This document shows, piece after piece, positions 29,406 through 47,900 of a DNA stretch of 64,000 bases; position 1 is the stretch's first letter; each line of letters begins with the position of its first letter. Below the pieces are notes generated by a model. That model saw only the letters and a list, made by a program, of their open reading frames with translations, was not told the DNA's origin and did not search any database. The DNA is taken from NCBI GenBank assembly GCA_029262455.1, contig JAJCZJ010000020.1:325078-389077 (forward strand). Reading direction: 5' to 3'. The stretch comes from Deltaproteobacteria bacterium. GTDB taxonomy: Bacteria; Desulfobacterota; Binatia; HRBIN30; CADEER01. The translations under genes were made by a program, and so were the position numbers.

Positions 29406-30590
29406 ATGCCGAAAGAAGAGATCGAGGTCGAGGTTCGGGTTCGGCTGCGCGGAGGGCATTCCTACGATCTCACCCTATCATCCAACTCCGCTCTTCTGCG
29501 CGACTTGATCACGACGCTCGGCGGGTCGAGAAACTCGGTCCAGCCCCGACTCTTCCAGCTACCCCTCGACGGCGGCCAAACCTCCGCAACATTCGCCAGC
29601 GATCAGATATCAGCGATCGACACCCGTCCGCCACTCGACTGGAACACCATCACAACTGGTACGGAAGAGCGGTCCGCAAAAAGCCTCGGCGATGGTCCGC
29701 CTCTCGTCCTACGCGGCGCCCGCAACATTACACGCCAGCCATCCTACGAGGCAGCAGAGCGACGAGCGCGGCGGCTGATGGAACCGTTCGTGGCGCATCG
29801 ACAAGCCCGCCGTGCCGCACTGAAGAGCACTTGCGACGAGCTCGGCGGAAACACCTTCGTCGTCTCCCCCTTCAACCAAGGCTTCGTCCCGCTACTGCGC
29901 AACTGGGCCGCATCCTGTGATCGTTCCGGCATCGACTGCCGCGCCAGGACGGTACTGTTTCCGACCGACAACGGCGCCGACACTGCAGCACGCGAGCTCG
30001 GATTCGCAACCCTCTTCGACGGCGTCTCGTTTGACGGTGCCCCGCGCGACGCTATCAAAGTCTACGGGGACGCCCACTTTGCCGATTGTGTCTTCGCCAA
30101 GCTCGGCGCAGCAATCGACATGCTCGCTCTCGGCTACGACATCCTACTCCAGGATATGGATCTCGTCTGGTTCAAAGACCCGCTCCCCGGACTCAAAACT
30201 CGAGCGATGGCCGACGATCTGGACTTACAGTTCATGCGCGACATGAATCCGCGCTTCCAGCCGCTGTACTACAACTCCGGCTTCGTATTTATGCGCAACA
30301 ACGAATTCACCCGCCAAACCTGGAACACCATCTTCGACGCCTTTGCGGCGGTCGTGTTCTACCGCTCCGATCAAACCGTCGTGAACCAGGTCGTCGACTG
30401 CTACAAAGAGCGAGGATTGCGAGCCGCCCGTCTTCCAGATCGCTACGTAGATGGACAACTGCTGATCCGGGCCCAAACAAAACGCCGGCCTCTACCGCCA
30501 GATTCGATCGTGGCTCACGTCAACTGGACCGGAAACCTTGCCGAGAAGATCGCTCGGCTCAAAGCACTCGAACTGTGGTTCATCGACTGA
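29406..30590 (+). CDS. Novel ~80-aa N-terminal domain fused to a nucleotide-diphospho-sugar transferase (Nucleotid_trans/GT77-like) domain
   Basis: Start taken at MPKEEIEVEV (internal Met of ORF 29367..30590; weak RBS, start uncertain). C-terminal domain has LLQDMDLVWFKDP (the DxD...W motif of the Nucleotid_trans family). The N-terminal 80 aa are homologous to the N-terminus of the 36641 protein and to an internal segment of the 41978 protein. Confidence 0.5.
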   Translation: MPKEEIEVEVRVRLRGGHSYDLTLSSNSALLRDLITTLGGSRNSVQPRLFQLPLDGGQTSATFASDQISAIDTRPPLDWNTITTGTEERSAKSLGDGPPLVLRGARNITRQPSYEAAERRARRLMEPFVAHRQARRAALKSTCDELGGNTFVVSPFNQGFVPLLRNWAASCDRSGIDCRARTVLFPTDNGADTAARELGFATLFDGVSFDGAPRDAIKVYGDAHFADCVFAKLGAAIDMLALGYDILLQDMDLVWFKDPLPGLKTRAMADDLDLQFMRDMNPRFQPLYYNSGFVFMRNNEFTRQTWNTIFDAFAAVVFYRSDQTVVNQVVDCYKERGLRAARLPDRYVDGQLLIRAQTKRRPLPPDSIVAHVNWTGNLAEKIARLKALELWFID

Positions 30591-30673
30591 TCGATGCAAA
30601 TCACTTGCCGTGTCACAAGTTTTCCCCTTTTAAGCTTGACAGGAAGTCAGCGAACGTCGAGACTGCCTCCCGG

Positions 30674-31942
30674 ATGCCGACATTTGTTGGCGACACCTTA
30701 CCGGAGGCGCTTCGAGCCTTGGACTGCTCAAAATCCATCGAAACTCGTGTCCTGCCGCGCGCAGTGGCCTTCGGTCGCTTGCTTCTCGCTATCGCGGCGG
30801 CACTTGCCGTGGTGACAGCTCCGCATAGGGCGCCGGCAGCCCAGATCAAGTTCACGGGATTTGCCCAAATCAACGGCGCCCCGAGCGGACCGTTCGCAGC
30901 ATTCACAATGAATGAGGTCGTCGATATGACGATCACGATCGACGAGACTACGGCCGATTCGAATGGCGCCGGCGGCGCCGGATCATACAGCGATCCGACC
31001 TCGACCGCATTGTTCGAGGGACAGACCTCCGTGCAGATGGTCACTTTCACCGGCTTCGGCTTCGAACTCCTCGATTCGACGCGACTCGACCCGGCCAACG
31101 GCCTCGTCTCATCGAGCCCGAGCGCGGCGTACGTCGAGGACTGGGACCTGACCAACCTGTCGCCGATTTCGAACGTCGACGACCTTCCGACCATCATTGC
31201 CGAGTTGCCCAATGTGAACATTGGAACCGTCAGCGCCAACTTTTCGATACAACAACTGCCCGCCGGCCCGACCACGCTCTTCCTCGGGCTCAAGCCAACC
31301 GTCACGGTCACCGACTTTTGCGGCAACGGCATCGTCGAGGCCCCGGAAGCGTGTGACGATCCGGTGTGTTGCAACCCGACCTGCACCGCAATCATAGCGA
31401 ACGGAACTGAATGCCGCGCTTCAGCCGGCGTCTGTGATGTGGCCGAGACCTGCAGCAACGGCGCATGCCCCGTCGACGGCTTCGCCTCGATCGGCACCGT
31501 GTGCAACCCGTCATTGGGCGTCTGTGATCCAGAGGAAGTGTGCAGCGGCTCGAGCGCGGAATGCCCGCCGGACACGCTGACTCAGTTCACCTGTGGCACG
31601 ATCTGCGGCGCCCCGGTAGACGAGTGCGACGTTGCCGACATCTGCGTCTCCGGCAACGTCGATTGCCCACCGATGGGGACAATGTGCACACCGACACCGG
31701 TTCCGACTCCGACGCCCACGCCCGTTCCCGAAAATGGGTCCGGGGACGGGGCTTGCAGCGACGGTCTCGACAACGACAACGACAACCTCATCGACTGCGA
31801 CGACCCTGATTGCCTCGACGTCGAGGCATGCGAAACCGTGCACGCACCGACGCTCTCGCCAGGTGGATTGACGATCACCGTGCTCATCCTCGCCCTCATC
31901 GGCTTGTTGGCGATGGGGCGGGCAGTGCTCCGGAAGAACTGA
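30674..31942 (+). CDS. Secreted Cys-rich repeat protein (CGNG...ECDD myxo-type/disintegrin-like repeats) with PT linker and C-terminal TM plus basic tail (possible sorting signal)
   Basis: Internal ATG of ORF 30086..31942; the true start may be a nearer GTG. Repeats CGNGIVEAPEACDD, CRASAGVCDVAETCSNGACPVDGF and CNPSLGVCDPEEVCSGSSAECPPD, a TPTPVPTPTPTPVP linker, and a tail APTLSPGGLTITVLILALIGLLAMGRAVLRKN. Confidence 0.5.
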   Translation: MPTFVGDTLPEALRALDCSKSIETRVLPRAVAFGRLLLAIAAALAVVTAPHRAPAAQIKFTGFAQINGAPSGPFAAFTMNEVVDMTITIDETTADSNGAGGAGSYSDPTSTALFEGQTSVQMVTFTGFGFELLDSTRLDPANGLVSSSPSAAYVEDWDLTNLSPISNVDDLPTIIAELPNVNIGTVSANFSIQQLPAGPTTLFLGLKPTVTVTDFCGNGIVEAPEACDDPVCCNPTCTAIIANGTECRASAGVCDVAETCSNGACPVDGFASIGTVCNPSLGVCDPEEVCSGSSAECPPDTLTQFTCGTICGAPVDECDVADICVSGNVDCPPMGTMCTPTPVPTPTPTPVPENGSGDGACSDGLDNDNDNLIDCDDPDCLDVEACETVHAPTLSPGGLTITVLILALIGLLAMGRAVLRKN

Positions 31943-31962
31943 CGGCCGAGGTGCCTGATCAA

Positions 31963-32469
31963 ATGAGCGACTCCAAAAAGACAAGAAAGCAGCTAATCGA
32001 AGAACTCGAACAACTTCGTGGTCAAGTCGCGCAGCGACAGCAGTCGCAGTCGGACAACAGTGCACCGGCGCTTGCCGGCGACGTTTCACGACGCACCGCG
32101 CTAAAGGTCGCCTGGACCGCGCCGGTCATTTTGGCAATCCCTCTCCAGGCCGATCGCTCTGGCGCCCAACCTCCGGTCGGAACGGTGGCCCCGGGCTGTC
32201 CCACCATGACCCCGACCAACGCGGCCCCTCCGACTAGCTCGCCGACCTTGTTCCCAACGACCGCTGAGCCGACGATTTCGCCGACTCAACCAGTCCCGAC
32301 CACCAGGTTGCCAACGTCCAGTCCCACGAACGACCCGACATTGCGTCCGACCACCAGCCCGACGATCCCTGCCCCGACGGCTATGCCGACGGCGAGGCCG
32401 ACCACCAGCCCGACGATCCCTGCTCCGACGCTTTCCCCGACCCCTGGTTTCCCGACGCTTTCCCCGTAA
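31963..32469 (+). CDS. Small exported Pro/Thr/Ser-rich protein, paralog A (coiled-coil N-region plus SRRTALK Tat-like motif)
   Basis: Internal Met of ORF 31810..32469: MSDSKKTRKQLIEELEQLRGQVAQRQ...DVSRRTALKVAWTAPVILAIPLQ followed by PTTSPTIPAPT-type repeats. A paralogous N-terminus is found at 45413..45892 on the opposite strand. Confidence 0.5.
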   Translation: MSDSKKTRKQLIEELEQLRGQVAQRQQSQSDNSAPALAGDVSRRTALKVAWTAPVILAIPLQADRSGAQPPVGTVAPGCPTMTPTNAAPPTSSPTLFPTTAEPTISPTQPVPTTRLPTSSPTNDPTLRPTTSPTIPAPTAMPTARPTTSPTIPAPTLSPTPGFPTLSP

Positions 32470-32611: not shown

Positions 32612-33976
32612 ATGTCGTCAGGAAACAGCGTAGAAACGCCGCCTACCAACTCTGGAGACTCCCCACGAGCACGGGGTGCGGCGGCTCGGCGGGTACGTCC
32701 GCGGCAGCGGGGCGGGCTCGAGACTTTCGAAGTACACAACGAAATCGTCGTGCTTCCCGGCGAGGGGGACCGCGTTTACGCGCTGAACGAGTCCGGTAAG
32801 GAGATCTTCGGCCTCTGCGACGGTCGCCACACCCTAGAGGCAATGGTCGACCAACTGGCGTCGAGGTACGACGCGCCTGACGTCGCGATCATGGGCGACG
32901 TGTCCGCAGCGATATTCGACCTCCACGGCCTCGGGCTGGTCGATATTCCTCCACCGGCTGACGCAGCTGCATCGATCGAGCCGCAGACCTCGGTCAAGGC
33001 ACGACCCAACGTGCGTTTCGTCTTCGGCATAGAGGACGTGCCCTATTTCCACTGGCAGCTTGCCATCCTCTTCGAGTCGCTCGTCGGCCAATTGCCCGAC
33101 GGTTGGGACGTCACCGTCGTCGTTTGCAACGACGAAGCACCGATTTCCGACGAGCTCATGAAGATCGTTTCCGAGTACGGTGTTCGCATCATGACCGGCA
33201 CCAGTCTCGCCGATCGCCACAGTCTCGACTTCGCCGGCGGCGGTGATCGCTACGTTCCGATGAACCGAGTCGAAGCACTCAGCGTCATTCGGCAAATCGT
33301 CGAACCCGAAGACGTCGTTTGCCTTCTGGACACCGACGTCTTCCTGTACGGCAACCTTCAAGAACAACTCTTCCCGACCGGCAACGCAATGGCCCGCAAC
33401 TGGATCATCTCCGAAGATCGGTACTTCGCGTTCTCGACCAACAACGAACGAGGACTGTCGCTCCCGAAGCTGCTCGAAGCCCTGGGGTGCGAGCAGGAGT
33501 TCAAACCCGGTGGCGTAGCGGTCTTCTTGACGGGAGAGACGATCCAACGCGAGCGCGTCATCCCCGACATTTTCCGTTTCCTTCAGGTTCTGTTCCTGCT
33601 CGGGAAAATCGTCGACGCACCAGCGCACGGCGTTTGGGTCGCCGAAATGGCATGCTTCGCAATGGCCATGTACCCCAACGAAATCGACTACGAGCTTCTC
33701 GACATCCCGCAATTCGCCGTCCAGGAGCAGCATGCTGAAGTCGCCCCCGACGGTTCGTTCTTCCACTACTACACCGACATCAACGACGGCGGGGGATCAA
33801 ATGGTCCGTTTTTCGAATCGCAGTGGCATAAACAGTTATTTCACCAGTCCAACATGCTCCTCGAAGACTTCGACAGCTTCAGAGTGAACGCCAAAGGCCG
33901 CCTCGAGCAGCGCTTCTTCGAAATCGCCGACAAGGCGAGAAAGCGCCTTTACGGCATCGAACGCACGGGCAAGTAG
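32612..33976 (+). CDS. PqqD-like (RRE) domain fused to a DxD-containing putative glycosyltransferase domain
   Basis: Residues ~36-112 (FEVHNEIVVLPGEGDRVYALNESGKEIFGLCDGRHTLEAMVDQLASRYDAPDVAIMGDVSAAIFDLHGLGLVD) match the PqqD/RiPP-recognition-element pattern (LNETA..IWELCDG..T..EI...L...Y......DV..FL..L...GLI). The C-terminal domain has DTD and acidic motifs. Confidence 0.5.
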   Translation: MSSGNSVETPPTNSGDSPRARGAAARRVRPRQRGGLETFEVHNEIVVLPGEGDRVYALNESGKEIFGLCDGRHTLEAMVDQLASRYDAPDVAIMGDVSAAIFDLHGLGLVDIPPPADAAASIEPQTSVKARPNVRFVFGIEDVPYFHWQLAILFESLVGQLPDGWDVTVVVCNDEAPISDELMKIVSEYGVRIMTGTSLADRHSLDFAGGGDRYVPMNRVEALSVIRQIVEPEDVVCLLDTDVFLYGNLQEQLFPTGNAMARNWIISEDRYFAFSTNNERGLSLPKLLEALGCEQEFKPGGVAVFLTGETIQRERVIPDIFRFLQVLFLLGKIVDAPAHGVWVAEMACFAMAMYPNEIDYELLDIPQFAVQEQHAEVAPDGSFFHYYTDINDGGGSNGPFFESQWHKQLFHQSNMLLEDFDSFRVNAKGRLEQRFFEIADKARKRLYGIERTGK

Positions 33977-33980
33977 AGCC

Positions 33981-34598
33981 GTGTTGTCAATGTTCGATAC
34001 GCCCGCACACCTCGAGCAGCAGACGCGCGAGCAACAGGCCGCAGCCCGGTACTGCGGGCTCGGCTTCAAAAAGGCCACGCTGCCCTCCGAGGTCTTGCAA
34101 CGGTTGCGCCAACACCTGGAAACGAACAGCCGCCGATTCCGCGCCGAGGAGCCCATCGACTACCTCGTCAACCCGGACCCCGGGAAGATTCCGGCCCTTT
34201 ATTTCGAGGACAAAGAATTCAACGCCACCCTAAGTCGCGAGCTACAAGGATTGCACGAAGAGTGGGCCGGAAGGAGTCTGACCGAGTCCGCCTGCTACGG
34301 CATCCGCGTCTATCAACGCGGCAGCTTTCTCTACAACCACGTCGACCACACCGACACACACATCATCAGCTCTTCGATCTGCGTCGACCACCGCCTCGAC
34401 AAGCCGTGGCCCCTCTACGTCGAGGATATCGACGGCAATCCCCACCAGATCGATCTCGACCCTGGCGACATACTGTTCTACGAGGGAGCCCGCCTGCGAC
34501 ACGGCCGTGCCTATCCACTCGAGGGTGACTACTACGCATCCATTTTCGTCCACTATCGACCCGCAAATCTCTGGTCTTCGCGGCTCGTTGGCACCTAG
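33981..34598 (+). CDS. 2OG-Fe(II) oxygenase superfamily protein (PhyH/P4H-like)
   Basis: YNHVDHTD (HxD) followed by a distal H in LRHGR and a jelly-roll-like spacing. Alternative ATG start at 33990. Confidence 0.55.
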   Translation: MLSMFDTPAHLEQQTREQQAAARYCGLGFKKATLPSEVLQRLRQHLETNSRRFRAEEPIDYLVNPDPGKIPALYFEDKEFNATLSRELQGLHEEWAGRSLTESACYGIRVYQRGSFLYNHVDHTDTHIISSSICVDHRLDKPWPLYVEDIDGNPHQIDLDPGDILFYEGARLRHGRAYPLEGDYYASIFVHYRPANLWSSRLVGT

Positions 34599-34640
34599 TC
34601 GCCGATTTCGTTAAGAACACCCGAAAACGCAGTATTACTC

Positions 34641-36644
34641 GTGAGACATCTACTCTATACAAACTACCAGTCCGGTCAGTCGGGTTTGAGCAACGGCATC
34701 ATGTCGATCGAGCTGGGCGTGGTCCTCGCGTTCCTGACGAATCGGTTTCTCCTGCTCGATGGCAACATCTCCCCGCCGGCCAATATCGTGTCGTACGGCG
34801 ATCGAGTCGACAACAGCCAGCCGAGCCGCGTCACCGACCTGATCGACCTACCGGTCGCCTGGAGTGAGCCAGGAAGCGTCGACGTGTCCAAGTTGCCGTT
34901 CCTCGAATTGAGCGACGACCATCTGGGGAGTGCCGCGTTCTATGTCCCCGGCACCGTCGACATCCGATCCGCCGACGCGGAAGCGTTCGCCAACGGCAGG
35001 ACAGTGTGGCTCAACGCTGGCGGCTCGCTCGACGAGATCCCGGTGCTGCGAGTGTCCGAGGATCACAGCAAAGACAATCTTCGATACAATCTCAACTACT
35101 ACTCGTACTTCTTCTACCTCGACGACGAAACGCGTCGCTCCGTCTACCGCATGCTCGAGCGGATGCAACCAAAGCAGGACCTAGGGGAGCTGGCGAAGCG
35201 CGTCGCCGGCGATCTCGGAGCATTCAACGCGGTGCACTTGCGACGCGGTGACTTCAAGGTGACCTATGGAGTCACCACCCTCGACCGTCAACCTTGGGAA
35301 GCAATCGAGGCGCTCGAGCATCACTTCAAACGCGACGACACTCTGGTCTTCGTGACCGACGAGCGCGACGACCCGTTCTTCGACGAGATCAAGAAGGTCT
35401 ATACGCATCACGTATTCATCGATCACCACATCCTCGACGACTACGAGAAGGACTTCGCCGCATTGCAGCACCGCGACAGCATCGCCTTGGCCTATCTTTC
35501 CCAGCTCGTGGCGGCCGAATCCGCCGACTTCATTGGCACCATGACCAGCACGTTCACCGCCATCATCCAGCGCTACCGCGGCAATCGCGGCAAGGCCGAG
35601 AGTTTCAAGTACCTTTGGAACGAGCTCCCGGACGACGGCGATCGTCTCGAACGCGGCCGTCATCCGGTTAGTGAGTGCGTCCCGATGGACCGCGGCATGA
35701 TGGTCGAAGAGTCGTCGGGTCCGTACTCATGGAATCGCTACAACAAGAGGATCGCCGCCAACTGGATGCGCGAATGGCCCGAAAGTTTTCTGACCCAAGA
35801 GAGCCTCGAAACCGGCAAATTGACGACCGGGGCCAGCCCCGTTGCCCGCCCCATCGTTCTGGTTCGTCCCGAAAGGACGAAAGTCGAGGTCGCGTTCGAC
35901 GGCTTGAGCATCATTCTAAACTCGCAAGTGCCTCGCGTTGCGACCAAGCTGAGCGAAGCCTTCGAATCACGCCAAGCTGCGAGTCCAGCGAACGTCATCG
36001 GGGAGTTCGAGGTTGCTGAAGAAGACGGCGACTTCCGTCTTCTGCAACGCGGCCAGGAAATCGCCACCGCAGCAAGCTACGAGGAGTTGGCGCGCACGTT
36101 AAAACTCCGCATGGTGCCGATCTTTGTCGGTGCGCGCCGCCGGCACGTGTGGCTGGAAGCTTTTTCCTTCCGTAGAGCAGGCCATGCGCTGGTTCTCGCC
36201 GGCGACATGGGTCCTCCATCGGACTGGCTGCCGGACGCCATGTGCTCGAACGGCTGGGAGCTGCTGTGGGACGAGATCGTCCCGATCCGCCTGGAAGACT
36301 GTACCGTCACACCGTTCGGCCGCACGACCTGGCCGAAGGGCGCAGCCCTGCGCATCGACCGTACGCCCTGTCGCGTCAGCGGCCTGATCGTCACCAGCCG
36401 ACAAGTCCAGCGCCGCGACACCTTGACCGTCTTGTCCCCAGCCACCGGGGTGGCGGAGTTGATCGGCCGCTGCGTCGACTTCCGCACCGACCGCAAGCGG
36501 GCGGTAGAACGCCTGTGCAAGCTGGTCGAGAAACGAACCGTAGGCAGACTGTCCTTCAGCCGCGCCGAGACCGCTGTCGATCTCCTCACGCGCCCCTTCC
36601 TCGACGCGGAGCGTGAGTCCGCCCACGGTACAAAGTCTGCATGA
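34641..36644 (+). CDS. Fucosyltransferase-superfamily GT-B (O-FucT-like) domain plus ~250-aa C-terminal domain of unknown function
   Basis: N-terminal QSGLSNGIMSIELGVVLAFLTNRFLLL resembles the GGLxNQ block of O-FucT/POFUT-like GTs. HLRRGDF matches the H-x-R-R-G-D motif shared by GT11/GT23/GT65/GT68. The C-terminal region has no recognised motif. Confidence 0.45.
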   Translation: MRHLLYTNYQSGQSGLSNGIMSIELGVVLAFLTNRFLLLDGNISPPANIVSYGDRVDNSQPSRVTDLIDLPVAWSEPGSVDVSKLPFLELSDDHLGSAAFYVPGTVDIRSADAEAFANGRTVWLNAGGSLDEIPVLRVSEDHSKDNLRYNLNYYSYFFYLDDETRRSVYRMLERMQPKQDLGELAKRVAGDLGAFNAVHLRRGDFKVTYGVTTLDRQPWEAIEALEHHFKRDDTLVFVTDERDDPFFDEIKKVYTHHVFIDHHILDDYEKDFAALQHRDSIALAYLSQLVAAESADFIGTMTSTFTAIIQRYRGNRGKAESFKYLWNELPDDGDRLERGRHPVSECVPMDRGMMVEESSGPYSWNRYNKRIAANWMREWPESFLTQESLETGKLTTGASPVARPIVLVRPERTKVEVAFDGLSIILNSQVPRVATKLSEAFESRQAASPANVIGEFEVAEEDGDFRLLQRGQEIATAASYEELARTLKLRMVPIFVGARRRHVWLEAFSFRRAGHALVLAGDMGPPSDWLPDAMCSNGWELLWDEIVPIRLEDCTVTPFGRTTWPKGAALRIDRTPCRVSGLIVTSRQVQRRDTLTVLSPATGVAELIGRCVDFRTDRKRAVERLCKLVEKRTVGRLSFSRAETAVDLLTRPFLDAERESAHGTKSA

Positions 36645-37630: not shown

Positions 37631-37802
37631 GCAACGCGAGGGCTCGCTGCTCGAGACCACCGATCCTCGCGCTTTCGACCAAAGGTAGCGAAGGCGCGCC
37701 CCCCGCCGCACCGGGTACTGTCATCAGCAGCCGGCGAGTCAGCCACCTCGCTTTCGCAGGCTTGACCGAAGCCCCCGGGATCAGAGGCAGAGTGCGTTTG
37801 TC

Positions 37803-40156: not shown

Positions 40157-41942
40157 CGTCGACTCCGCACTACTGCCAATTCCCCAACCCGAGTGGCGTG
40201 CTTCTTTATCCGGCGACGGCGCGGCAGTTGATGTCCTGATTTTAAGCAAGGACCGCGCCTGCCAACTCGACGGACTGCTGCGCACGATGCGCGCGTTCCT
40301 GACCATCCCACACCGGAAATACGTACTGTACAAGACGTCTAATTTGGCGTTCGAGCGCGGCTACGACATGCTCCGCCGGTGGAATCCCGAGGTCGAGTTC
40401 ATCGACGAGGCGCAAACGTTTCGACAATGCTACCTCGACCTCGTGGCAAGGATCGCCGCCGGGCCTGGTCGCTACTGGATGCCGGTGATGGACGACATGA
40501 TCTTCACTCGCACGTTCACCGCACAGCCACTCATCGACCTCCTCGACACAGACGAGGACGTGCTGGCGATCTCTCTGCGCCTCGGCGAGAACATTACCTA
40601 TTGCTACACCCGAAACGCTCCAACCACACCTCCGGACTTCAGCAACGGACACCGTTGGGAATGGAGAACAGCCAGCCCAGGCTACTGGAACTATCCAATG
40701 TCCGTCGACGCCAACATCTACCGCACGGCGGAAATGGCCGAATACATCCCGACCCTCCAATTCGGCAAGGCTGAAGTCATCGAGGCACGCATGGCCGGGG
40801 TGCCCTTGAACCGCCCCCATATGCTGTGTGAACCGACCCCCAGCGTACTCAATCTCGCGATCAACCGCGTTCAACACACCTTCAAGAATCGGCACGGCAC
40901 AATCACGCCAGAAGCCCTGAACGGCGCTTTCCTCGCGGGTTTCGCGATGGATGTGCGCCCGTTGCTGGGTCGAACCTTCAACGCCTGTCACGTCGAGGTC
41001 GAGCTGTCCTTGGTCCCCGATGCGCGCGAGCGCCCCGGCGCAACGCCCCTCTCTTCGACCGGCTGGAAACCACAGCGAAACGGCGCCGTCGTCGTGACCG
41101 AGAGCCATGCTGTCGTGACGCTCAAGAGGAACGGAACGAAGCTCAAACTCAATCAGAGCGCCGAAGAGATCTGGAAACTGTGCGACGGAACACGAACGCC
41201 CGAGGACATCCAAAACGAGCTCGCGCAACATTTTGACGCAACCCCGCGCCAGCTTCACAGCGGCGTACGAAGCGCCCTGGCGAATTTCATCAATCACGGC
41301 CTTCTCCGTCAGGAACGCCCGGAAGGCGCATACCGCCGCATCGACCTGCGCCAGATTCCCTGCTTCGTGATCAATTGCGAAGCCGATGCTGAGAAGGACA
41401 CGTTGATGAAGCGTCAGCTCGCTGAGCTCGGGATACCGTACGAACGTGTACCCGGGATCGCCGCAAGCCCGGATTGGGTCGGCGTCGCGCTGTCGCACCT
41501 CAAAGTGCTTCGCCTGACCCGCTCGACGACACCCTTCCTGGTGCTCGAGGACGATTGCTTGTTCAACGACCGCTTCCAACCAGTGTGGCAAGTACCGGTC
41601 GAGGCCGACGCCCTGTATCTCGGCGTTTCCGAGTTCGGCCTCGAGACCCCCGGTCACTTCAGCTGGGGCCGCCGGCGCAAGAACCAATGGAGACCCTACG
41701 ACCGGTCCTTCCTCCGCATTTTCAACATGCTCGCACGCCATGCGGTCGTGTACCTTTCCAACGACTACTGCGAGCAAGTCATCCAATCGCAAATCGAAGC
41801 ACTGACGAATCGAAGTTTGCCGTACCCTGGGGACATCGGCTGCGCGATGCTGCAAGCATCGCACGTCGTCCTGACCCCGAACGAACCGATCTGCCGGCAA
41901 ACCGGTCGTGACTCGACCGTGCGTCCGTTGCCGGAGCTCTGA
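40149..41942 (+). CDS. Three-domain enzyme: GT-A (GT2-like) domain - PqqD-like (RRE) domain - GT25 family glycosyltransferase domain
   Basis: GTG start overlapping the upstream stop. N-terminal VDVLILSKDRACQLDGLLRTM and a DDM motif (GT-A). Residues ~312-388 VVTLKRNGTKLKLNQSAEEIWKLCDGTRTPEDIQNELAQHFDATPRQLHSGVRSALANFINHGLL (PqqD-like). C-terminal CFVINCEADAEKDTLMKRQLAELGIPYERVPGI matches the GT25 N-terminal motif (LPS GT25 / collagen Hyl-galactosyltransferase family). Confidence 0.5.
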   Translation: MTDVDSALLPIPQPEWRASLSGDGAAVDVLILSKDRACQLDGLLRTMRAFLTIPHRKYVLYKTSNLAFERGYDMLRRWNPEVEFIDEAQTFRQCYLDLVARIAAGPGRYWMPVMDDMIFTRTFTAQPLIDLLDTDEDVLAISLRLGENITYCYTRNAPTTPPDFSNGHRWEWRTASPGYWNYPMSVDANIYRTAEMAEYIPTLQFGKAEVIEARMAGVPLNRPHMLCEPTPSVLNLAINRVQHTFKNRHGTITPEALNGAFLAGFAMDVRPLLGRTFNACHVEVELSLVPDARERPGATPLSSTGWKPQRNGAVVVTESHAVVTLKRNGTKLKLNQSAEEIWKLCDGTRTPEDIQNELAQHFDATPRQLHSGVRSALANFINHGLLRQERPEGAYRRIDLRQIPCFVINCEADAEKDTLMKRQLAELGIPYERVPGIAASPDWVGVALSHLKVLRLTRSTTPFLVLEDDCLFNDRFQPVWQVPVEADALYLGVSEFGLETPGHFSWGRRRKNQWRPYDRSFLRIFNMLARHAVVYLSNDYCEQVIQSQIEALTNRSLPYPGDIGCAMLQASHVVLTPNEPICRQTGRDSTVRPLPEL

Positions 41943-41977
41943 TCGAACGAGCCGTTCCTCCAAGCCGGATCCATACA

Positions 41978-44900
41978 GTGAAAAAGGGCACAATCCACGA
42001 TCTCTTCTCCCGCACCGCTTGCGTCGTGTCCGACAGGCACCGATTCATCTATTTGACGGCGCAAAACGCCACGTCTTCCCTGAAGGCCGAGCTGTCGAAC
42101 GAGCACTGCGGCGGCGTTGTCCTCGCCCGCGCACAGGTGGCTGATAAACTCTGGAACCAATACTTTACGTTCGCCTTCCTGCGCGACCCGCTGACGCGCT
42201 TTCTCTCCGCCTATCAGGAAGTGTCTCTGCACATGGAGCGTGACAAACTCGAACCGCGCCCTTTCGGCCGGATGCCCGACGGCCTCGATCGCTTTCAGGC
42301 ATTTCTCGCGGACGTCGAGCAGAACGGTCCGTGGAACGAGCACATTGCACTCCAGCTAGCCTTCGTCGAGCGCCGAAGAATCGACTTTTGGGGGCTCGTC
42401 GAAACGCTGCAAGACGACTTCCAACAAATCTACACCCGGCTGGGATTGGGGACCTGTCCCGTTCTGCCAAAACGCCGCTCTCGCAGCGGCCGTGAGGAAA
42501 AGGACGGCATCTCGCGCTTCGCCTTCCATCCGGAGGACCTCGATGCGACGACAATTGAGCGCATCTACGACCTCTACCGTGAGGACGTCTTGCTGATTCG
42601 AGCGGTTCGCCCCGACGCACCTGAAATGCAGCCGCACTCAACCCGTGCCGCACCGCCCCCCGGAATGGTGCAGGTGGCGATCGCCCTGGCCAACGGCGGC
42701 GAATACTCCCTCGAACTTCCGCCCGGCCAACCAGAGCTGGGCGCTCTGCAAGCTGTGGTATCACCACAACAATCCGATGGACGTTTTCTCGGCCCGCAAG
42801 TTCTGCAGGTTCCACTGCGTGGTGGCAATTCCGCGCTGACGTTTTCCACGCAGCACCTCGTTCGTCTCGAGCTACGCCCCCCCGACGCCCGAGAACTGCG
42901 CCGAATCGAGGCGCCGGCCACCGGCACGGGCAACTCCGGAGTGAATCTAATAAACGTCGGGAACAAGCGGCCGCCAACCGAGGACCCATCGAGCAATATC
43001 GACGAGGCGCATCTCGGTGGCTACATTCGTGCGGCCAATACACCGATTCTCCACAGCGCCGCAGGCCCACACGGGGACCGGGGAACCTGGAATCCGCTGC
43101 TGTGGCGTTGGGCAATCGAAGATCTCGACGTGCGATCAGTGATCGATATCGGATGCGGCGAGGGACACGCCGCCGGATTTTTCTCCGACGGCGGGTGTGA
43201 AGTGCTCGCGCTCGATGGCAGCCTTCAAGCGCGCTATTCCAGCGTTGTTCCAGATCGCCACGTCGTACACGACTTCGTCGAGGGACCTTTCGTCCCAGAG
43301 AAAAGCTTCGACATGGCCTGGACCTGCGAGTTCGTCGAACACGTCGAGGCGCGTTTTCTCCACAATTTCCTGGCTACGATCGCATCGAGCCGCAAGTACG
43401 TGATGATGACGTTCGCCAGCCCGACACAAACAGGCTGGCATCACGTCAATTGCCAAGAACAGGGTTACTGGGTCGATCAGTTGGGACGCCTCGGGTTTCG
43501 CCTGGACGACGATCTAACCGAGAGAGGCCGAGCCTTGGCTCACTCTCATTTTCGCGAACGTGGCCTGGTCTTCGTCCGGCACCATCGAAAAGGCGAGTCA
43601 TCGAAGTCCACAGAACCGTCGCTGCGCGCGACTGCCGAGAGTCACTGTCTCGACCCGCTGCCGGTCCAATCCATGCAGGTCGCACAGCGCGAGAGCGATG
43701 CCTTCTACCTGTTTGTCGACATCTTCGTGCATCCGACCGCACCGAGAATCGTGGCGATCTCACCACCCTATGGCGAAGACTGGAATCCTAACGTTGTCGG
43801 CATCGACTACGATGCCGTCGACCTTGTATTCGGTGACATACGCGTCCGCGGCCGCTGCCTGCGGCACCGTCTCGACTCCTGGGAGCCTTGCATGCTTCTC
43901 GAGTTCGAGGACGAAGACCTAACAGAGCGCATTCGGGCCAACGACGAGATCAACGTCACGATCGAGGCCGGCTCGCATTCGTCGTCCTTCGTCCTGACGA
44001 CCCGCCCAGCGCCAGCCTACGATGTCGCAATGAGCCTCGTCGTACGCAACGAAAACCGCTGGATCCGCACGTTTCTCGACTACTACCTCGACTGCGTCAA
44101 AGCCGACCACGTCTTCATCTACGACAACGGAACGTCGGAACAAGACCAGCTGCTTTCCATTCTTCACCCGTACCGAGAGCGCGGGCAAGTGACGTACATC
44201 CCGTGGGATTTTCGCTGGCGCAACCGCATCGACCGCAAGATGATCGGCCAACCGACACAGGAGGCTCACTCCCTTGCAAGATTCGCAAACACCGGGTGGA
44301 TCGGCTTTCTCGACATCGACGAGTTCCTGCGCTTGCCGCACAGCACCCTGCCACAATTTCTCGCTCGCTTCGCGTCCGCGGAGGTCGACGGACTCTCGTT
44401 CGGTATCCGGTGGTTTTCTTACGAGGGCCCGCTTGCACTCGATGAGATTACGAGTGTGCCACTGCAATTCCTCCACTCGCGCCGCAATGAGCTCGGCCGA
44501 AAACGGCAGAAGTTCTTCGTCAAAGGCGGCGGCTCGAAGTTTCTTCGCTTGCATTGGCTCGAAGACGGAGGTCGCGAACTGCCCATCGACGACACCGAGA
44601 TCTACTTTCACCACTACGATCAACGTCCCGGCCGTTTCGAAGAAGGAAAGCAAATCGGAGGAGCGCGCGACGAATACATGCTGCGCTTCGCCGACCAGCT
44701 CTCGCGCCCCGAGCGGCACAGAGCCCCTCTAACCGAGAGAGGATGGATCACCCACATCAACTCTTCGATCGAACGCGCCGAACGCGACACCTCCAAACTC
44801 ACCCCGGAAGTCCTCGCCGTCGACGGCATGTGCGGGCGCTACACCCGTCACTTCTACAACAACCTCTGCAGCTTCGGAGGATGCCGCTACCTCGAGATCG

Positions 44901-45385
44901 GCAGCTATCACGGGGCCAGCACCTGCGCGGCAATCTTCGGCAACGACGTATCCGCCGTGTGCATCGACAATTGGACACAGTTTCACGGCAAGCGAAGCCG
45001 CTTCGAGGATGCCCTACGACGCTTCCGAGGAGATCGCTCGGTCCGAGTCATCGAGCAAAACTGCTTCGAAGTAGACGCCTCAAGCCTCGGCCCATTCGAC
45101 ATCTATCTCTACGATGGCGACCACAGCCAGCAGAACCAGTACCGAGCCTTGCAGCACTTCGTTCAGACGCTGGCCAAGCTCGCCGTAGTCGTCATCGACG
45201 ACTGGAATCGTCGGCATATCCGTCGGGGGACACAGGACGCGATTCGGGACCTCGAACTCGATGTAATCTTCGACCGAGAGATCCTACTGCCAACCGACCA
45301 GACGGCGGATGAAAACCGTGACGCTGGAGCGCGAACTTGGTGGAACGGACTCTACATCATGCTCGTTCGCAGTAGAACGCAGTAG
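41978..45385 (+). CDS. 1135-aa five-domain enzyme: sulfotransferase (Sulfotransfer_2-like) - novel ~80-aa domain - class I SAM methyltransferase - GT-A glycosyltransferase (DIDEFL) - TylF/CmcI-like O-methyltransferase
   Basis: GTG start. Five domains are visible:
- (1) 5'-PSB-like RFIYLTAQNATSSLKAEL and 3'-PB FLRDPLTRFLSAY, carbohydrate sulfotransferase motifs.
- (2) MVQVAIALANGGEYSLELP...LQVPLRGGNSALTFSTQHLVRLELRPP, homologous to the N-termini of the 29406 and 36641 proteins.
- (3) RSVIDIGCGEGHAAGFFSDGGCEVLALD, methyltransferase motif I.
- (4) HVFIYDNGTSEQ...GWIGFLDIDEFL, GT-A DxD.
- (5) FDIYLYDGDHS, Methyltransf_24 (TylF/MycF-like) motif. Confidence 0.55.
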   Translation: MKKGTIHDLFSRTACVVSDRHRFIYLTAQNATSSLKAELSNEHCGGVVLARAQVADKLWNQYFTFAFLRDPLTRFLSAYQEVSLHMERDKLEPRPFGRMPDGLDRFQAFLADVEQNGPWNEHIALQLAFVERRRIDFWGLVETLQDDFQQIYTRLGLGTCPVLPKRRSRSGREEKDGISRFAFHPEDLDATTIERIYDLYREDVLLIRAVRPDAPEMQPHSTRAAPPPGMVQVAIALANGGEYSLELPPGQPELGALQAVVSPQQSDGRFLGPQVLQVPLRGGNSALTFSTQHLVRLELRPPDARELRRIEAPATGTGNSGVNLINVGNKRPPTEDPSSNIDEAHLGGYIRAANTPILHSAAGPHGDRGTWNPLLWRWAIEDLDVRSVIDIGCGEGHAAGFFSDGGCEVLALDGSLQARYSSVVPDRHVVHDFVEGPFVPEKSFDMAWTCEFVEHVEARFLHNFLATIASSRKYVMMTFASPTQTGWHHVNCQEQGYWVDQLGRLGFRLDDDLTERGRALAHSHFRERGLVFVRHHRKGESSKSTEPSLRATAESHCLDPLPVQSMQVAQRESDAFYLFVDIFVHPTAPRIVAISPPYGEDWNPNVVGIDYDAVDLVFGDIRVRGRCLRHRLDSWEPCMLLEFEDEDLTERIRANDEINVTIEAGSHSSSFVLTTRPAPAYDVAMSLVVRNENRWIRTFLDYYLDCVKADHVFIYDNGTSEQDQLLSILHPYRERGQVTYIPWDFRWRNRIDRKMIGQPTQEAHSLARFANTGWIGFLDIDEFLRLPHSTLPQFLARFASAEVDGLSFGIRWFSYEGPLALDEITSVPLQFLHSRRNELGRKRQKFFVKGGGSKFLRLHWLEDGGRELPIDDTEIYFHHYDQRPGRFEEGKQIGGARDEYMLRFADQLSRPERHRAPLTERGWITHINSSIERAERDTSKLTPEVLAVDGMCGRYTRHFYNNLCSFGGCRYLEIGSYHGASTCAAIFGNDVSAVCIDNWTQFHGKRSRFEDALRRFRGDRSVRVIEQNCFEVDASSLGPFDIYLYDGDHSQQNQYRALQHFVQTLAKLAVVVIDDWNRRHIRRGTQDAIRDLELDVIFDREILLPTDQTADENRDAGARTWWNGLYIMLVRSRTQ

Positions 45386-45412: not shown

Positions 45413-45892
45413 TTACTCCTCGCCCTTGGTTTCTTTTCCCACGGGAGCCGGTCGGCCCTCGTCGTCATCCGAAGCAATGAGCTTTTTAGCACCGAAGCCA
45501 AAGAGCGCCGCTGCGGCCACAGCCGCGGCGCCGCCTGAAACCACAGGCGCATCGACTGCTGCCTGAAAGGCGGTCGGAACCGCCGTACTGGGAAGGCCCG
45601 GATCGAGGACCGTCGGGACCTGCGTCGGTGCGGCAGTAGGATTGAGGCAAAGTGACGGCGAATTGGTACATTGCGTCGTCCCAGCTTCGACAGGCGCGAC
45701 GAATCCAAGATCAGACGAGACCGGTACCGATAAGATCACCGGCGTTACCCAGGCAATCTTGAGCGCCGAGCGCCTTGAAATATCGTCGGAAAAAGTCGGC
45801 CGCGCCGCCTTCCCGTCCGTCACCAGCTCGCCCCGCAGCCGCTCGATCTCCTCGAGAAGCTCCTTTTTCGTCTTCGTTCCGTCACCCGCCAT
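45413..45892 (-). CDS. Small exported Pro/Thr/Ser/Ala-rich protein, paralog B (coiled-coil N-region plus SRRSALK Tat-like motif, C-terminal hydrophobic segment)
   Basis: Internal Met of ORF 45413..45997, preceded by gagggtc. MAGDGTKTKKELLEEIERLRGELVTDGK...DISRRSALKIAWVTPVILSVPVSS, then a PT-rich region with two Cys, then AAAVAAAALFGFGAKKLIASDDDEG. Confidence 0.5.
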   Translation of the reverse strand: MAGDGTKTKKELLEEIERLRGELVTDGKAARPTFSDDISRRSALKIAWVTPVILSVPVSSDLGFVAPVEAGTTQCTNSPSLCLNPTAAPTQVPTVLDPGLPSTAVPTAFQAAVDAPVVSGGAAAVAAAALFGFGAKKLIASDDDEGRPAPVGKETKGEE

Positions 45893-46048
45893 TATAGACC
45901 CTCTCCAATGCTGCCGCTGCCATAGCAAGAATCCGACCCAAATCCCAGGCCTGCGACATCGATTTCCTGGATTCGCGGTGAGACACCCCCTGCGCACTCG
46001 TAGCAGCGGCTCGGCAGCCTATCCCGATCAAGTGGGAGAATGGGCGTG

Positions 46049-46744
46049 TCATCCCACCCCGCAGACCTCCCGACCCGTGGCTTCACGATAGTAGGACACA
46101 TCCTCGGCGCAAATGCGCAAAGCCAGTTCTCGCGTCTCCCCATCATAGAAAAGCTCCGGAACCGGCATCCCGTGCCGGCGAAGCCAGCCCGGGGAACGAT
46201 CTGTCGCGCGCTCTCGAATCGTCACGTCCTGCGGCGAAGGATTCTCGTGCAGGACCGGCGCGGAAACCGAAACTCTCTCGTTTAAGCTCGCCAGCCCCCG
46301 CGAGAGATCTTCCACCGCAACGACTTCGTCGAAGTCTATCTGATGCGTGTTTCGGACCTGCGGCACCAAATGGTGCTGGGGTTCGATCCCGCGGGTCTGA
46401 ACATGCTGCAAGGTGTAGAGGAACTTGCGAAAGCTCTTGTCCCGCAGCGAGAGCTTCCGGTCATCGTCGGCAAAGCACCACAACGTTTCATCGCGCACGA
46501 CCCACAAGGTGTAGAACCCGACGAGTCGGCGAAGCGGATCGCGCACAAAGAAGACCTTCCAATAGTCACGACAGCGGTCGATGTCGCCGTGCCAAATCAG
46601 GAAAGCGTCAAGGTCTTCGACCGGTTGCTTCGTCTTCTCCTCAATCGCTGCCTTGCACCACGATCGGATGCTGTTCGAACCACACTTGGGACTATAGACG
46701 GCAAGTACTTCGAGTGGATCCGCGGCTAGGAAGAAGTGGGCCAT
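46049..46744 (-). CDS. Carbohydrate sulfotransferase-like protein (Sulfotransfer_2/3 family); possible N-terminal extension through the heptad repeat to a GTG at 46900
   Basis: From MAHFFLAADPLEVLAVYSPKCGSNSIRSW (5'-PSB PKCGS) and FFVRDPLRRLVGFY (3'-PB). The ORF-track version starts at a GTG at 46898-46900, 5 nt upstream of the preceding gene's stop, which is a coupling-type overlap. That start would add (T-S-H-E-S-P-V)n repeats to the N-terminus. Confidence 0.5.
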   Translation of the reverse strand: MAHFFLAADPLEVLAVYSPKCGSNSIRSWCKAAIEEKTKQPVEDLDAFLIWHGDIDRCRDYWKVFFVRDPLRRLVGFYTLWVVRDETLWCFADDDRKLSLRDKSFRKFLYTLQHVQTRGIEPQHHLVPQVRNTHQIDFDEVVAVEDLSRGLASLNERVSVSAPVLHENPSPQDVTIRERATDRSPGWLRRHGMPVPELFYDGETRELALRICAEDVSYYREATGREVCGVG

Positions 46745-46759
46745 GGGGATTCTATGTGT

Positions 46760-46878
46760 GTGATTGGTGACTGGTGATTCGTGACTGGTGACTGGTGATT
46801 CGTGACTGGTGACTGGTGATTCGTGACTGGTGACTGGTGATTCGTGACTGGTGACTGGTGACTGGTGACTGGTGATTG
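46760..46878. repeat. 17 tandem copies of a heptanucleotide (GTGACTG/GTGATTC; 21-nt super-unit x4) between the GT60-like gene and the sulfotransferase
   Basis: Read directly: gtgattg gtgactg gtgattc gtgactg gtgactg gtgattc ... gtgactg gtgattg. On the minus strand this is CAGTCAC/GAATCAC. In the reading frame of ORF 46049..46900 it encodes the heptad TSHESPV five or more times. Confidence 0.8.
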
Positions 46879-46892
46879 GTTGGGCAAAAGTT

Positions 46893-47900
46893 CTACACAC
46901 CGGCGCCGGCCTGGTACTCTTCGAAAGTGACGCAGCTCTCCCAGTCGGACGGCGACCGGATTGTCACTGGGTCGGGGTTCGCGCCACTAAACGCATCCGG
47001 ATGCGCGCGTTTGGCTCGGAAGTCAAAGCCCGAAAAAATCTCGTAGTCCCGCAAGGTCCGCACCCGACCGAAACCGTACGGTCCGGGCAGCGGTGATTCA
47101 TAGCTCGAGAGCAGCTGTTCCAAACGGGCAAACGCCTCGCGGTTGCGGCGCTCGACGACGTCTTCCCCCTGCTCCCAATGGCGCCGCGGCGGCCCGTCGT
47201 TGTGCTGCATGTGCCATGCCACGACTTCCGTTGGAAGAAAGAAGTCGTACCCCCAGGTGTACGAACGAATGGTCACATTCAGCTCTTCGCCCCAATAGTA
47301 TTGTCCGGGATCCTGCGGCACCTCGACATTCCAGATGCCGCGCGAGAACGCGAAGTTGCCGTTGACAAACCGTGTACGCCCCGGCTTCTTGACGTTGGGG
47401 GCTCCAAAGTCGAACCACGGCGCCCAATGGTCCGACGCGCTCCAGCCGCTCACCTTGGTCGTCGGCACACCCATTTCAGTACGACGCTGCGGCACACCAT
47501 CCTCGTCGTACCAGAATAGGGGAGCATTCATGCTGAGAACGGGTTTCTCACTGGGGAGAGCCTCCAGCATCTCGATCAGCCGCGCGTCCCAGTCGGGCTC
47601 GAGCTTCATATGGGAATCGATCTGCAGAGTGTAGGGTTCACCTCGCCACAGAGACTGCGCAATATTACGCGCCCAGGGGCCGCCCTGGCTTGCCGCAATC
47701 GTCGTATCCACAAACCGAAACCGCGGATCTCGGCGAAAATCCTCCAACGGCACCGGCGCTTTTGGGTCACGCTGCCAGCAAATTCCGAAACGCAGCGAAT
47801 CTGGAGCACTTGCCGTTTCGATCGCGTCACGCAAGGTGCGCGGCAACTCGGGGTCCGTGTACGACGCGATCGCGACGAAGATCTGAGGGTGGGAAGCCAC
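46893..47900 (-). CDS. GT60-like (Glyco_transf_GlcNAc family) glycosyltransferase, paralog of 38930..40156 without basic tail
   Basis: GTG start (MASHPQIFVAIASYTDPELPRTLRDAIETASAPDSLRFGICWQRD). Collinear similarity with the 38930 protein (IFV[AS]IASY.D, [IL]CWQ, DSH, W...E, WH). Confidence 0.45.
   Translation of the reverse strand: MASHPQIFVAIASYTDPELPRTLRDAIETASAPDSLRFGICWQRDPKAPVPLEDFRRDPRFRFVDTTIAASQGGPWARNIAQSLWRGEPYTLQIDSHMKLEPDWDARLIEMLEALPSEKPVLSMNAPLFWYDEDGVPQRRTEMGVPTTKVSGWSASDHWAPWFDFGAPNVKKPGRTRFVNGNFAFSRGIWNVEVPQDPGQYYWGEELNVTIRSYTWGYDFFLPTEVVAWHMQHNDGPPRRHWEQGEDVVERRNREAFARLEQLLSSYESPLPGPYGFGRVRTLRDYEIFSGFDFRAKRAHPDAFSGANPDPVTIRSPSDWESCVTFEEYQAGAGV

Follow-up and report, generated by a model that had tools for sequence, protein, structure and literature searches.

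A candidate bacterial gene cluster for leader-guided modification of small Pro/Thr-repeat proteins

Gene content of the locus

The genomic stretch analyzed here, a window of 64,000 nucleotides from a Binatia bacterium (assembly GCA_029262455.1, contig JAJCZJ010000020.1, positions 325,078 to 389,077), harbors a gene cluster which is predicted to modify small proteins rich in Pro-Thr (PT) dipeptides. An original prediction, made from the DNA sequence alone, had proposed that such proteins are hydroxylated, O-glycosylated, sulfated and methylated before they are exported. Proteins of the window were scanned against Pfam and NCBIfam profiles. Open reading frames and gene junctions were exactly as previously described, with closely packed plus-strand genes from 32612 to 45385 and overlaps of ATGA (36641-36644), TGATG (38928-38932) and GTGACTGA (40149-40156). 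The small proteins are referred to as precursors A and B, and the putative enzymes as A to K (Table 1). Nearly all of the domain inventory was recovered by the profile scans: three PqqD-type RiPP recognition elements (RREs; RiPP, peptide made by the ribosome and modified after translation) in the glycosyltransferase-type proteins A, E and G (44-52 bits), two GT60-like enzymes (F and J, about 150 bits each on PF11397), a GT77-like enzyme, two carbohydrate sulfotransferases (Sulfotransfer_2 in H and I), two methyltransferase domains in H, and a plant-type GDP-mannose 3,5-epimerase. Profile and structure searches likewise upheld the assignment of D as related to prolyl 4-hydroxylases (P4H).

Table 1. 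Genes of the cluster and its surroundings (positions in the window; aa, amino acids).
Feature	Position	Strand	Description
precursor A	31963..32469	+	168 aa; leader helix, spacer, twin-arginine segment, PT-rich region
precursor B	45413..45892	-	159 aa; leader as in precursor A, shorter PT region, C-terminus of tail-anchor type
A	32612..33976	+	N-terminal PqqD/RRE and 330-aa domain with invariant DTD
B	33981..34598	+	205-aa core protein, fold matching nothing known; invariant HxD...H
C	34641..36644	+	O-FucT-like (GT65-type) N-half and C-half weakly like HprK-related kinase A
D	36641..37630	+	new N-terminal domain of about 75 aa and P4H-type 2-oxoglutarate (2OG)-Fe(II) oxygenase
E	37803..38930	+	HPAT-like (GT95-related, GT8-like GT-A) glycosyltransferase with C-terminal RRE
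F	38930..40156	+	GT60 (PF11397) glycosyltransferase; N-terminal extension seen only in the window copy
G	40149..41942	+	new N-domain (possibly GT-A), central RRE, GT25-like C-domain; accessory
H	41978..45385	+	sulfotransferase, domain of about 75 aa, methyltransferase, GT92/GT2-like domain, methyltransferase; accessory
I	46049..46744	-	Sulfotransfer_2 enzyme; PF03567 4.6e-8
J	46893..47900	-	second GT60 glycosyltransferase, conserved core; PF11397 1.1e-43
K	48116..49114	-	GDP-mannose 3,5-epimerase (donor GDP-L-galactose or GDP-L-gulose); conserved core
GT77-like Nucleotid_trans	29406..30590	+	PF03407 4.2e-15, 57 bits; N-domain of about 75 aa; accessory
GT11 (alpha-1,2-fucosyltransferase family)	24158..24916	-	PF01531 2.3e-28, 100 bits
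DltB-like MBOAT	27498-28907	-	TIGR04091 3e-45, PF03062
876-aa single-pass membrane protein	24941-27571	-	transmembrane prediction; no family match

A family of small PT-repeat proteins with a conserved leader

Both small proteins are annotated genes in the public record and are paralogues, as had been proposed, with 47% identity over the first 65 residues. Precursor A begins with the helix KKTRKQLIEELEQLRGQ, followed by a spacer and the segment SRRTALKVAWTAPVILAIP (residues 42-60). The downstream region of about 100 aa contains 20 PT dipeptides compared to 7.5 expected from its composition, and the C-terminus shows none of the tail types recurring in the family. The C-terminus of precursor B consists of a hydrophobic segment rich in Ala and Gly, followed by KK and acidic residues, and this tail-anchor type also occurs in L004 (at the same position), L016, P0148-P0150, P0162 and P0163 (L and P numbers are our labels for loci and proteins).

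A HMMER search with a leader profile (first 65 residues of both window proteins) against 1.84 billion representatives yielded 68 hits at E<=0.001, 55 of which carry the motif RR...WxxPV; a word-based search with an 85-residue leader against a set of 5.8 billion proteins gave no match. Most family members comprise 100-280 residues, and the leader match begins at or near residue 1. The leader helix follows the consensus (K/R)T(K/R)xxL(I/L)xE(L/I)ExLR and is succeeded by a variable, often acidic spacer and the near-invariant segment [ST]RRxxL(K)..W(V/I)(A/T/S)PV(I/V)L(S/T)(V/I)P. Among the 55 members with the motif, an AxA-like sequence preceded by a basic residue usually occurs 12-25 residues past the WxxPV segment. 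The cores that follow are 30-200 aa long and freely variable in repeat number, the repeats being of the xPT type (SPT, FPT, MPT, APT, KPT), and PT dipeptides typically reach 2-7 times the expectation from composition across the family. A few types of C-terminus were distinguished: (I/V)PVE(L/I)x(D/E)F(D/E)(I/V)x, the Ala/Gly-rich segment with KK and acidic tail, AFPAAAP...ALFxF, and ...ALGSAR...

Two variations within the family were observed. In P0158 (450 residues), Sulfotransfer_2 is joined to a whole precursor with MPT/SPT repeats and a PVELQSFTID tail, reflecting either a genuine gene fusion or a gene call that read through a stop. The precursors of L057 (3366-3800) and L064 (3241-3663) have SKRD in place of [ST]RR ahead of WVAPxxxAVNLP and are thus natural KR variants.

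Conservation across bacterial lineages

Loci were fetched from genomes and metagenomes, and their genes were mapped with BLAST. The conserved core has the order precursor-A-B-C-D-E-F, with J sometimes positioned between D and E, and with J and K nearby. It occurs in at least six bacterial lineages, including Binatia, Gammaproteobacteria (among them the cultured Elongatibacter sediminis), the nitrite oxidizer Candidatus Nitrotoga CP45, Myxococcota, Spirochaetaceae and others. B adjoins A in all loci. In 23 of the 27 loci showing the position directly upstream of A, this place is occupied by the small precursor gene, namely in eight of nine loci of the first set, the window counted, and in 15 of 18 metagenome loci with any sequence there. 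Named loci with this placement are L002, L003, L008, L009, L013, L014, L016 and L011, where the gene is truncated by the contig end; among the 15 metagenome precursors, such truncation was noted twice and KR in place of RR also twice. The precursor gene is placed elsewhere in L004, where it is found opposite the end of H, like precursor B in the window, and in L018, where it follows a free-standing PqqD gene. Because both the gene order and a small gene of this kind are repeated across numerous independent loci, the arrangement is not due to chance. Homologous clusters do contain small PT-rich genes, in line with the original prediction, and we consider it very likely that the enzymes of the cluster act on the PT-repeat proteins.

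J homologues with 58-78% identity are present in L002-L004, L008, L009, L011, L013, L014 and L016, and K homologues in L008, L009, L011, L013, L016 and many metagenome loci. A minimal version, found in Nitrotoga, consists of J, the precursor, A-F and K, without G, H, I and the GT77-like gene. Since the Nitrotoga locus lacks G, H and I, sulfation and methylation are regarded as accessory to the core; the domains predicted for both steps were confirmed, but not their place among the conserved functions. G is rare, with 25 homologues compared to more than 200 cluster representatives for E. Its closest named relative (68% identity) is encoded in a metagenome-assembled genome (MAG) of a Candidatus Binatia bacterium, and G-family genes or fragments also occur in a Lysobacterales MAG and a Fibrobacterota MAG. 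The domain set of H differs among loci, and a G-H fusion is present in L008, L013 and L014. No genes for polysaccharide export, polymerase, priming, flippase, protease or ABC exporter functions were seen in the conserved core.

Some loci showed individual features. In L019 (8868-17448), a decayed cluster with a truncated D followed only by E and F lies next to two transposase genes. A Peptidase_C25 (gingipain-like) gene and a gene of about 138 residues come after the cluster in L013 (16975-19573) and L019. In L018 (8094-12090), a free-standing PqqD of 68 residues, a precursor, D, E and an epimerase form a sub-cluster, which adjoins a second A-B-C-D-E set together with JmjC, Asp/Arg-hydroxylase and sulfotransferase genes.

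RRE-carrying enzymes

PqqD matches were located at residues 44-110 of A (52 bits, 7.6e-14), 314-369 of E (51 bits) and 330-386 of G (44 bits), and were also obtained for all nine A homologues and all 40 E-family members scanned. An AlphaFold model of E from a 40-sequence alignment (mean predicted local distance difference test score, pLDDT, 92.9) displays a GT8-like GT-A domain, with glycogenin as the closest fold, and a lasso-type RRE. The RRE models superpose at 1.7-2.0 Å on lasso B1 proteins that were solved with their leaders (TbiB1/TfuB1). The model of G was poor (pLDDT 52) and only its RRE match was used, which likewise superposes on B1 proteins. RREs of this type bind leaders by strand addition, and within the precursors conservation is highest in the N-terminal extension. 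In lasso peptide pathways, YxxPxL is the motif recognized by B1-type RREs. The WxxPVI segment of the precursors has a spacing parallel to that of this lasso leader motif (PMC10368454). We infer that the RREs bind the WxxPVI segment, while other recurrent modules of the enzymes may bind the N-terminal helix.

Among the E family, the N-terminal region of about 300 residues matches PF23452 (HPAT/GT95) in 24 of 40 members at E<=0.01 (best 2e-9). Based on these matches, this domain probably represents a divergent offshoot of the family of plant hydroxyproline O-arabinosyltransferases (HPATs); PDB sequence and profile searches with it gave no match, and no gene for a UDP-arabinose mutase or 4-epimerase was seen in the cluster. 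The C-terminal domain of A, with its invariant DTD, did not match Pfam or the PDB in sequence and profile searches. Just two of nine A homologues matched HPAT (E about 0.08), and an hhalign comparison of the domain to the N-domain of E covered 173 colinear columns without being significant (E=0.078). For this reason A is not claimed to be HPAT-like; from its sequence it is probably a GT-A glycosyltransferase and possibly HPAT/SGT-like. The N-domain of G remained without PDB match in sequence and profile searches, and its profile comparison to the N-domain of E was not significant.

The lineage distribution and the RREs bear on whether the locus is an ordinary polysaccharide or lipopolysaccharide cluster, in which the PT genes would be unrelated neighbors or regulators and the PqqD domains would have a non-peptide ligand. 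The window is indeed rich in glycan genes, with three YfhO (GT-C) proteins, a GT2, the GT11 and a tetratricopeptide repeat protein. However, the precursor co-occurs with A across phyla, the RRE fold is identical to that of leader-binding B1 proteins, P4H-type and HPAT-type enzymes act on proteins, and the conserved core is devoid of flippase, polymerase, priming transferase and export genes, rendering this explanation highly improbable.

A classical small RiPP pathway, in which the precursor is cut into short glycopeptides for signaling or as antibiotics, similar to CLE, PSY or glycocins, would explain the three lasso-type RREs and the precursor gene at the first position of the operon; in addition, small CLE peptides are among the substrates of plant HPATs (PMC8012813). 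On the other side, the conserved core encodes no protease, cyclase or ABC exporter, neither a B2 cysteine protease nor an asparagine-synthetase-like cyclase C was found in the window region or the related loci, and Peptidase_C25 genes follow the cluster in just two loci. Cores of 30-200 aa with variable repeats and conserved C-terminal anchors or tails rather fit a structural protein, and a small RiPP product is considered very unlikely.

Candidate hydroxylases, further transferases and shared modules

D matches 2OG-FeII_Oxy_3 (PF13640) with 57 bits (3.9e-15). Across its alignment H211-x-D213, H279 and R295 are invariant, corresponding to the iron triad and the 2OG-binding Arg, and the sole PDB match is a prolyl 4-hydroxylase (6t8m, 4e-5). 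Of the two P4H/PhyH-like oxygenases predicted earlier, D was hence retained, whereas B has the motif without support from profiles: no match was found in Pfam, NCBIfam, the PDB or profile searches, nor against D. The B alignment contains an invariant H120-x-D122...H174, and B is possibly an Fe(II) double-stranded beta-helix oxygenase. It is not claimed to be a 2OG oxygenase because the profile comparison of B and D was not significant.

Both GT60 enzymes are far above the PF11397 cut-off of 21 (F, 151.6 bits, 5e-44; J, 150.4 bits). Characterized members of this family transfer sugar to Skp1 hydroxyproline or mucin threonine. With P4H-type D located beside HPAT-like E and two GT60 enzymes, hydroxylation of proline and O-glycosylation of the PT repeats would be the most economical reading. 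F homologues are about 305 aa long and lack the extension found in the window; there, the strongly basic N-terminal extension (38930-39240) comprises about 100 residues and is rich in Lys, Ala and Thr. PDB searches with C and J gave no match. Residues 500-570 of C match HprK-related kinase A (TIGR04352, 27.7 bits), but the Walker-A lysine is missing from C and GK[ST] is absent from all nine aligned homologues. The C-terminal half (36140-36644, residues 500-667) is therefore probably a pseudokinase, which might bind the precursor.

In H, Pfam identified Sulfotransfer_2 at the N-terminus, Methyltransf_23, Methyltransf_24 and GT92/GT2_4. Homologues of I align only from residue 53 on, and the real start of I is probably the ATG at 46744. 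Between this likely start and the stop of J, positions 46760-46880 are occupied by a 21-nt tandem repeat, GTGACTGGTGACTGGTGATTC, in 5.8 copies with 96% matches; if read from an upstream GTG, it would encode five HESPVTS repeats. K matches plant GDP-mannose 3,5-epimerase structures over residues 6-326 (PDB 8sg0, E=1.8e-93; 2c59, 3e-92), with the next-best family far behind at 1e-26. Its presence suggests a GDP-L-galactose or GDP-L-gulose donor, which would suit the fucosyltransferase-like enzymes C and GT11.

A domain of about 75 aa is common to the N-terminus of D (36662-36910), the N-terminus of the GT77-like protein (29409-29651) and the middle of H (42650-42943). It follows the pattern GGxxYxLxL...LQLPLxGGxxAxxF...PP and has no Pfam match; the versions in the GT77-like protein and D are homologous at 5.8e-11. 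The domain is possibly a further module for substrate docking or assembly.

The number of transferase domains, together with two sulfotransferases, would also fit a bacterial proteoglycan, in which the PT protein serves only as primer or anchor and long sulfated, methylated chains are built on few sites to form a capsule or matrix polymer rather than a mucin with dense O-glycosylation. Furthermore, glycogenin, which has the fold closest to E, primes its own chain, galactan synthases that build chains belong to GT92, and the nearby MBOAT pair is typical of polymer acylation. Against this, only about five transferases and not a single sulfotransferase are encoded in the minimal core of Nitrotoga, each repeat region offers tens of equivalent PT sites while the repeat number varies, and no processive synthase or polymerase is present. 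A proteoglycan is thus judged unlikely.

Cellular location and export

For A-K, no signal peptide and no convincing membrane helix were predicted. As these enzymes carry no export signals and need nucleotide sugars, 3'-phosphoadenosine-5'-phosphosulfate, S-adenosylmethionine and 2-oxoglutarate, modification would have to occur in the cytoplasm. The lasso-type RRE fold, the conserved leader and the missing export signals agree with the leader-guided, cytoplasmic modification suggested by the original prediction.

The route of export is less clear-cut. The anatomy of a twin-arginine translocation (Tat) signal is present: among the 55 members, the near-invariant [ST]RRxxLK is accompanied by low hydrophobicity (maximum Kyte-Doolittle value 1.31) and mostly by AxA-like ends with a basic residue. 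With its twin arginines, weakly hydrophobic stretch and AxA-type end, and in the absence of a dedicated protease or exporter, the leader favors Tat, and by these sequence features we rate export by Tat as slightly better than even. The original proposal of a Tat-like motif accordingly holds for the motif anatomy, but not at the level of the profile, as PF10518 (TAT_signal) reaches 7-12 bits, far under its cut-off of 22.7, and aligns only to the RR part; no NCBIfam Tat match was obtained for the leader.

The precursors may instead be modified but not Tat-exported, with RR-WxxPVIL acting as a docking motif or signal-anchor and the protein remaining cytoplasmic, becoming membrane-bound or leaving by another route. 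Besides the low profile score, this is favored by the strong conservation of the hydrophobic stretch, which is unusual for the h-region of a signal peptide, coincides with the motif of lasso leaders and could serve enzyme recognition only, and by the existence of KR variants. In addition, Tat would have to carry long, heavily glycosylated, disordered chains. For Tat speak the almost invariant RR pair in its [ST]RRxxLK context, the low hydrophobicity, and the basic residue and AxA-like end found 12-25 residues past the Trp in most members. Tail-anchored Tat proteins with basic residues on the inside are known, and precursors of the B type resemble them. Weighing both sides, we regard a modified, non-Tat protein as rather unlikely and continue to prefer export by Tat.

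Proposed pathway

Taken together, the data are best accommodated by a pathway in which xPT-repeat proteins are decorated under guidance of their leader and then exported, a mechanism that, taken in full, we consider fairly probable. The precursor would be made with a long N-terminal extension consisting of the amphipathic helix, the acidic spacer and [ST]RRxxL..WxxPV[IV]L. Soluble cytoplasmic enzymes would dock on this extension via the RREs of A, E and G, perhaps with extra docking through the domain of about 75 aa (D, H, GT77-like protein) and the degenerate HprK-like domain of C. D, and perhaps also B, would hydroxylate prolines of the PT repeats, and the first sugars would be placed on hydroxyproline and/or threonine by E, possibly also A, together with both GT60 enzymes (F and J). 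The glycans may then be extended by the O-FucT-like C, the GT77-like enzyme, GT11, and the GT25 and GT92 domains, with GDP-L-galactose or GDP-L-gulose provided by K among the sugar donors. In the extended version of the window, glycans would also be sulfated (H, I) and methylated (H). The finished protein would be exported, most likely by Tat, and signal peptidase would cut off the leader, so that no dedicated protease or transporter is needed. The resulting glycoprotein would resemble mucins or extensins and reside in the periplasm or at the cell surface. Certain paralogues, precursor B among them, would remain tail-anchored in the inner membrane, and the MBOAT pair may add acyl groups to the product once it is outside the cell.

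Several observations count against this pathway. RREs normally serve peptides much shorter than the cores of the precursors, and the chemistry, i.e., hydroxyproline, sugars and sulfate, is predicted from genes alone. The catalytic domain of A, B, the N-domain of G and the domain of about 75 aa match nothing known. Some family assignments stay below the respective cut-offs: the window E scores 12.4 bits on PF23452 (cut-off 23.9). Among the fucosyltransferase-superfamily, GT-A/GT2 and GT25 domains listed by the original prediction, GT11 and the GT92/GT2_4 domain in H stood, whereas O-FucT (PF10250) in C reached 25.5 bits (cut-off 31.5), with weak or faint matches among homologues, and GT25 in G reached 17.5 bits (cut-off 24), several G homologues carrying precomputed PF01755 matches. 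Finally, the metagenome loci L048, L058 and L067 have no precursor upstream of A.

Comparison to known systems

The plant pathway for hydroxyproline-rich glycoproteins (P4H, HPAT/GT95, SGT1/GT96, RRA-XEG113/GT77) targets extensins, arabinogalactan proteins and CLE peptides. It shares with the cluster a P4H-type oxygenase, HPAT-like and GT77-like transferases and repetitive, Pro-rich substrates, and the GDP-mannose 3,5-epimerase of the cluster is of the plant type. In contrast to the plant pathway, the cluster enzymes are soluble, predicted to be cytoplasmic, devoid of a type II anchor, fused to RREs and encoded in bacteria; the substrate repeat is xPT rather than SPPPP, and guidance would be conferred by a removable leader. 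The Skp1 pathway of Dictyostelium and Toxoplasma (PhyA, Gnt1/GT60, PgtA, AgtA/GT77, Gat1/GT8) modifies one proline of a folded protein without RRE or leader, whereas the cluster would act on tens of repeat sites of a disordered, exported protein. The parallel to five Skp1 enzyme classes drawn in the original prediction applies to P4H, GT60 and the GT77-like enzyme but fails for the fucosyltransferase, since PgtA belongs to GT74 and not to GT11; the cluster has GT11, but no Skp1-like or GT74 gene.

To lasso and other RRE-dependent RiPP systems, the cluster is similar in RRE fold, the leading position of the precursor gene and the combination of a conserved leader with a variable core. Lasso pathways also possess HPr-kinase-like tailoring enzymes, and C has the weak HprK-like domain. 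The cluster differs by the lack of B2 protease and cyclase, protein-sized repeat cores, glycosylation as predicted tailoring and a leader that probably doubles as an export signal. Fusions of RREs and glycosyltransferases have so far only been listed bioinformatically in surveys of the RRE-Finder type (PMC7470986, PMC12710340). The serine-rich repeat adhesins of Gram-positive bacteria are glycosylated in the cytoplasm by GtfA/B, Gtf3 and GlyE and leave the cell by accessory Sec export; unlike these systems, the cluster has no GtfA/B and no SecA2/SecY2, combines a hydroxylase with putative RRE guidance and resides in Gram-negative hosts. Redox enzyme maturation proteins such as TorD bind the twin-arginine signal during cytoplasmic maturation, after which the substrate is exported. 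The logic proposed for the cluster would parallel this, with glycosylation instead of cofactor insertion as the maturation step and the enzymes themselves as binders.

The cluster thus parallels RiPP maturation, hydroxyproline glycosylation and glycosylation of serine-rich repeat adhesins at once and is a member of none. Leader-guided modification and cytoplasmic glycosylation prior to export are known kinds of processes; the predicted chemistry would be new for bacteria, and the phyletic spread is wide. Identification as a lasso peptide cluster, polysaccharide locus or defense system was also considered, but the gene content supported none of these. A literature search did not identify a description of the cluster, of HPAT homologues in bacteria or of RiPP leaders of the Tat type, in agreement with the novelty claimed originally.

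Hydroxyproline-linked glycans and protein glycosylation of the GT60/GT95 type are regarded as eukaryotic inventions, a view that would be changed by a conserved bacterial pathway, and the finding bears on the origin of hydroxyproline glycosylation in eukaryotes. It is a tentative and somewhat doubtful idea that widespread bacterial, leader-guided O-glycosylation of hydroxyproline and threonine in repeat proteins shares its enzyme families (P4H, GT95-like, GT60, GT77, GT8-like fold and GDP-mannose 3,5-epimerase) with the eukaryotic toolkits and gave rise to these or forms a lineage sister to them, with a leader doubling as Tat signal and enzyme binding timing export. If true, this would be the first RiPP-type leader that is simultaneously a Tat signal peptide, and RRE-dependent pathways would be extended from small peptides to a protein-sized surface polymer. 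Plant HPAT and protist Gnt1/PhyA enzymes are otherwise hard to study, and the cluster would offer relatives of them in soluble, expressible form, as well as leader-addressable glycosyltransferases for engineering defined mucin-like or extensin-like glycoproteins in bacteria. With carriers such as Ca. Nitrotoga and the Binatia, which are widespread in sediments, the product may be an important unseen component of the cell envelope.

Neighboring genes

The base composition of the window is uniform and gives no sign of a recently acquired island. No tRNA, Rfam RNA or above-chance promoter or terminator signal was found in the window, and no stable RNA structure 3' of precursor A. The genes for the DltB-like MBOAT and the 876-aa protein accompany the cluster in L008, L009, L011 and L014. 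The single membrane helix of the 876-aa protein is N-terminal, and elsewhere its two halves are encoded separately, the N-terminal one next to the DltB-like MBOAT and the C-terminal one next to J (L014). The GT11 gene possibly belongs to the system. Immediately upstream (16733-24116) are three genes for YfhO-family (GT-C) membrane proteins and a GT2 gene, a set typical of extracytoplasmic glycosylation from lipid-linked sugars.

A secreted Cys-rich protein is encoded on the plus strand at 30674-31942, with its stop 21 nt before precursor A. Counterparts occur in L002 (15-2432), L003 (317-2038) and L020, i.e., in loci of the Binatia type only. The protein consists of disintegrin-like and acidic double-disulfide repeats with a PTPVPTPTPTPVP linker, and its hydrophobic and basic C-terminal tail recalls exosortase-type sorting signals. 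It could represent a second, leaderless glycosylation target.

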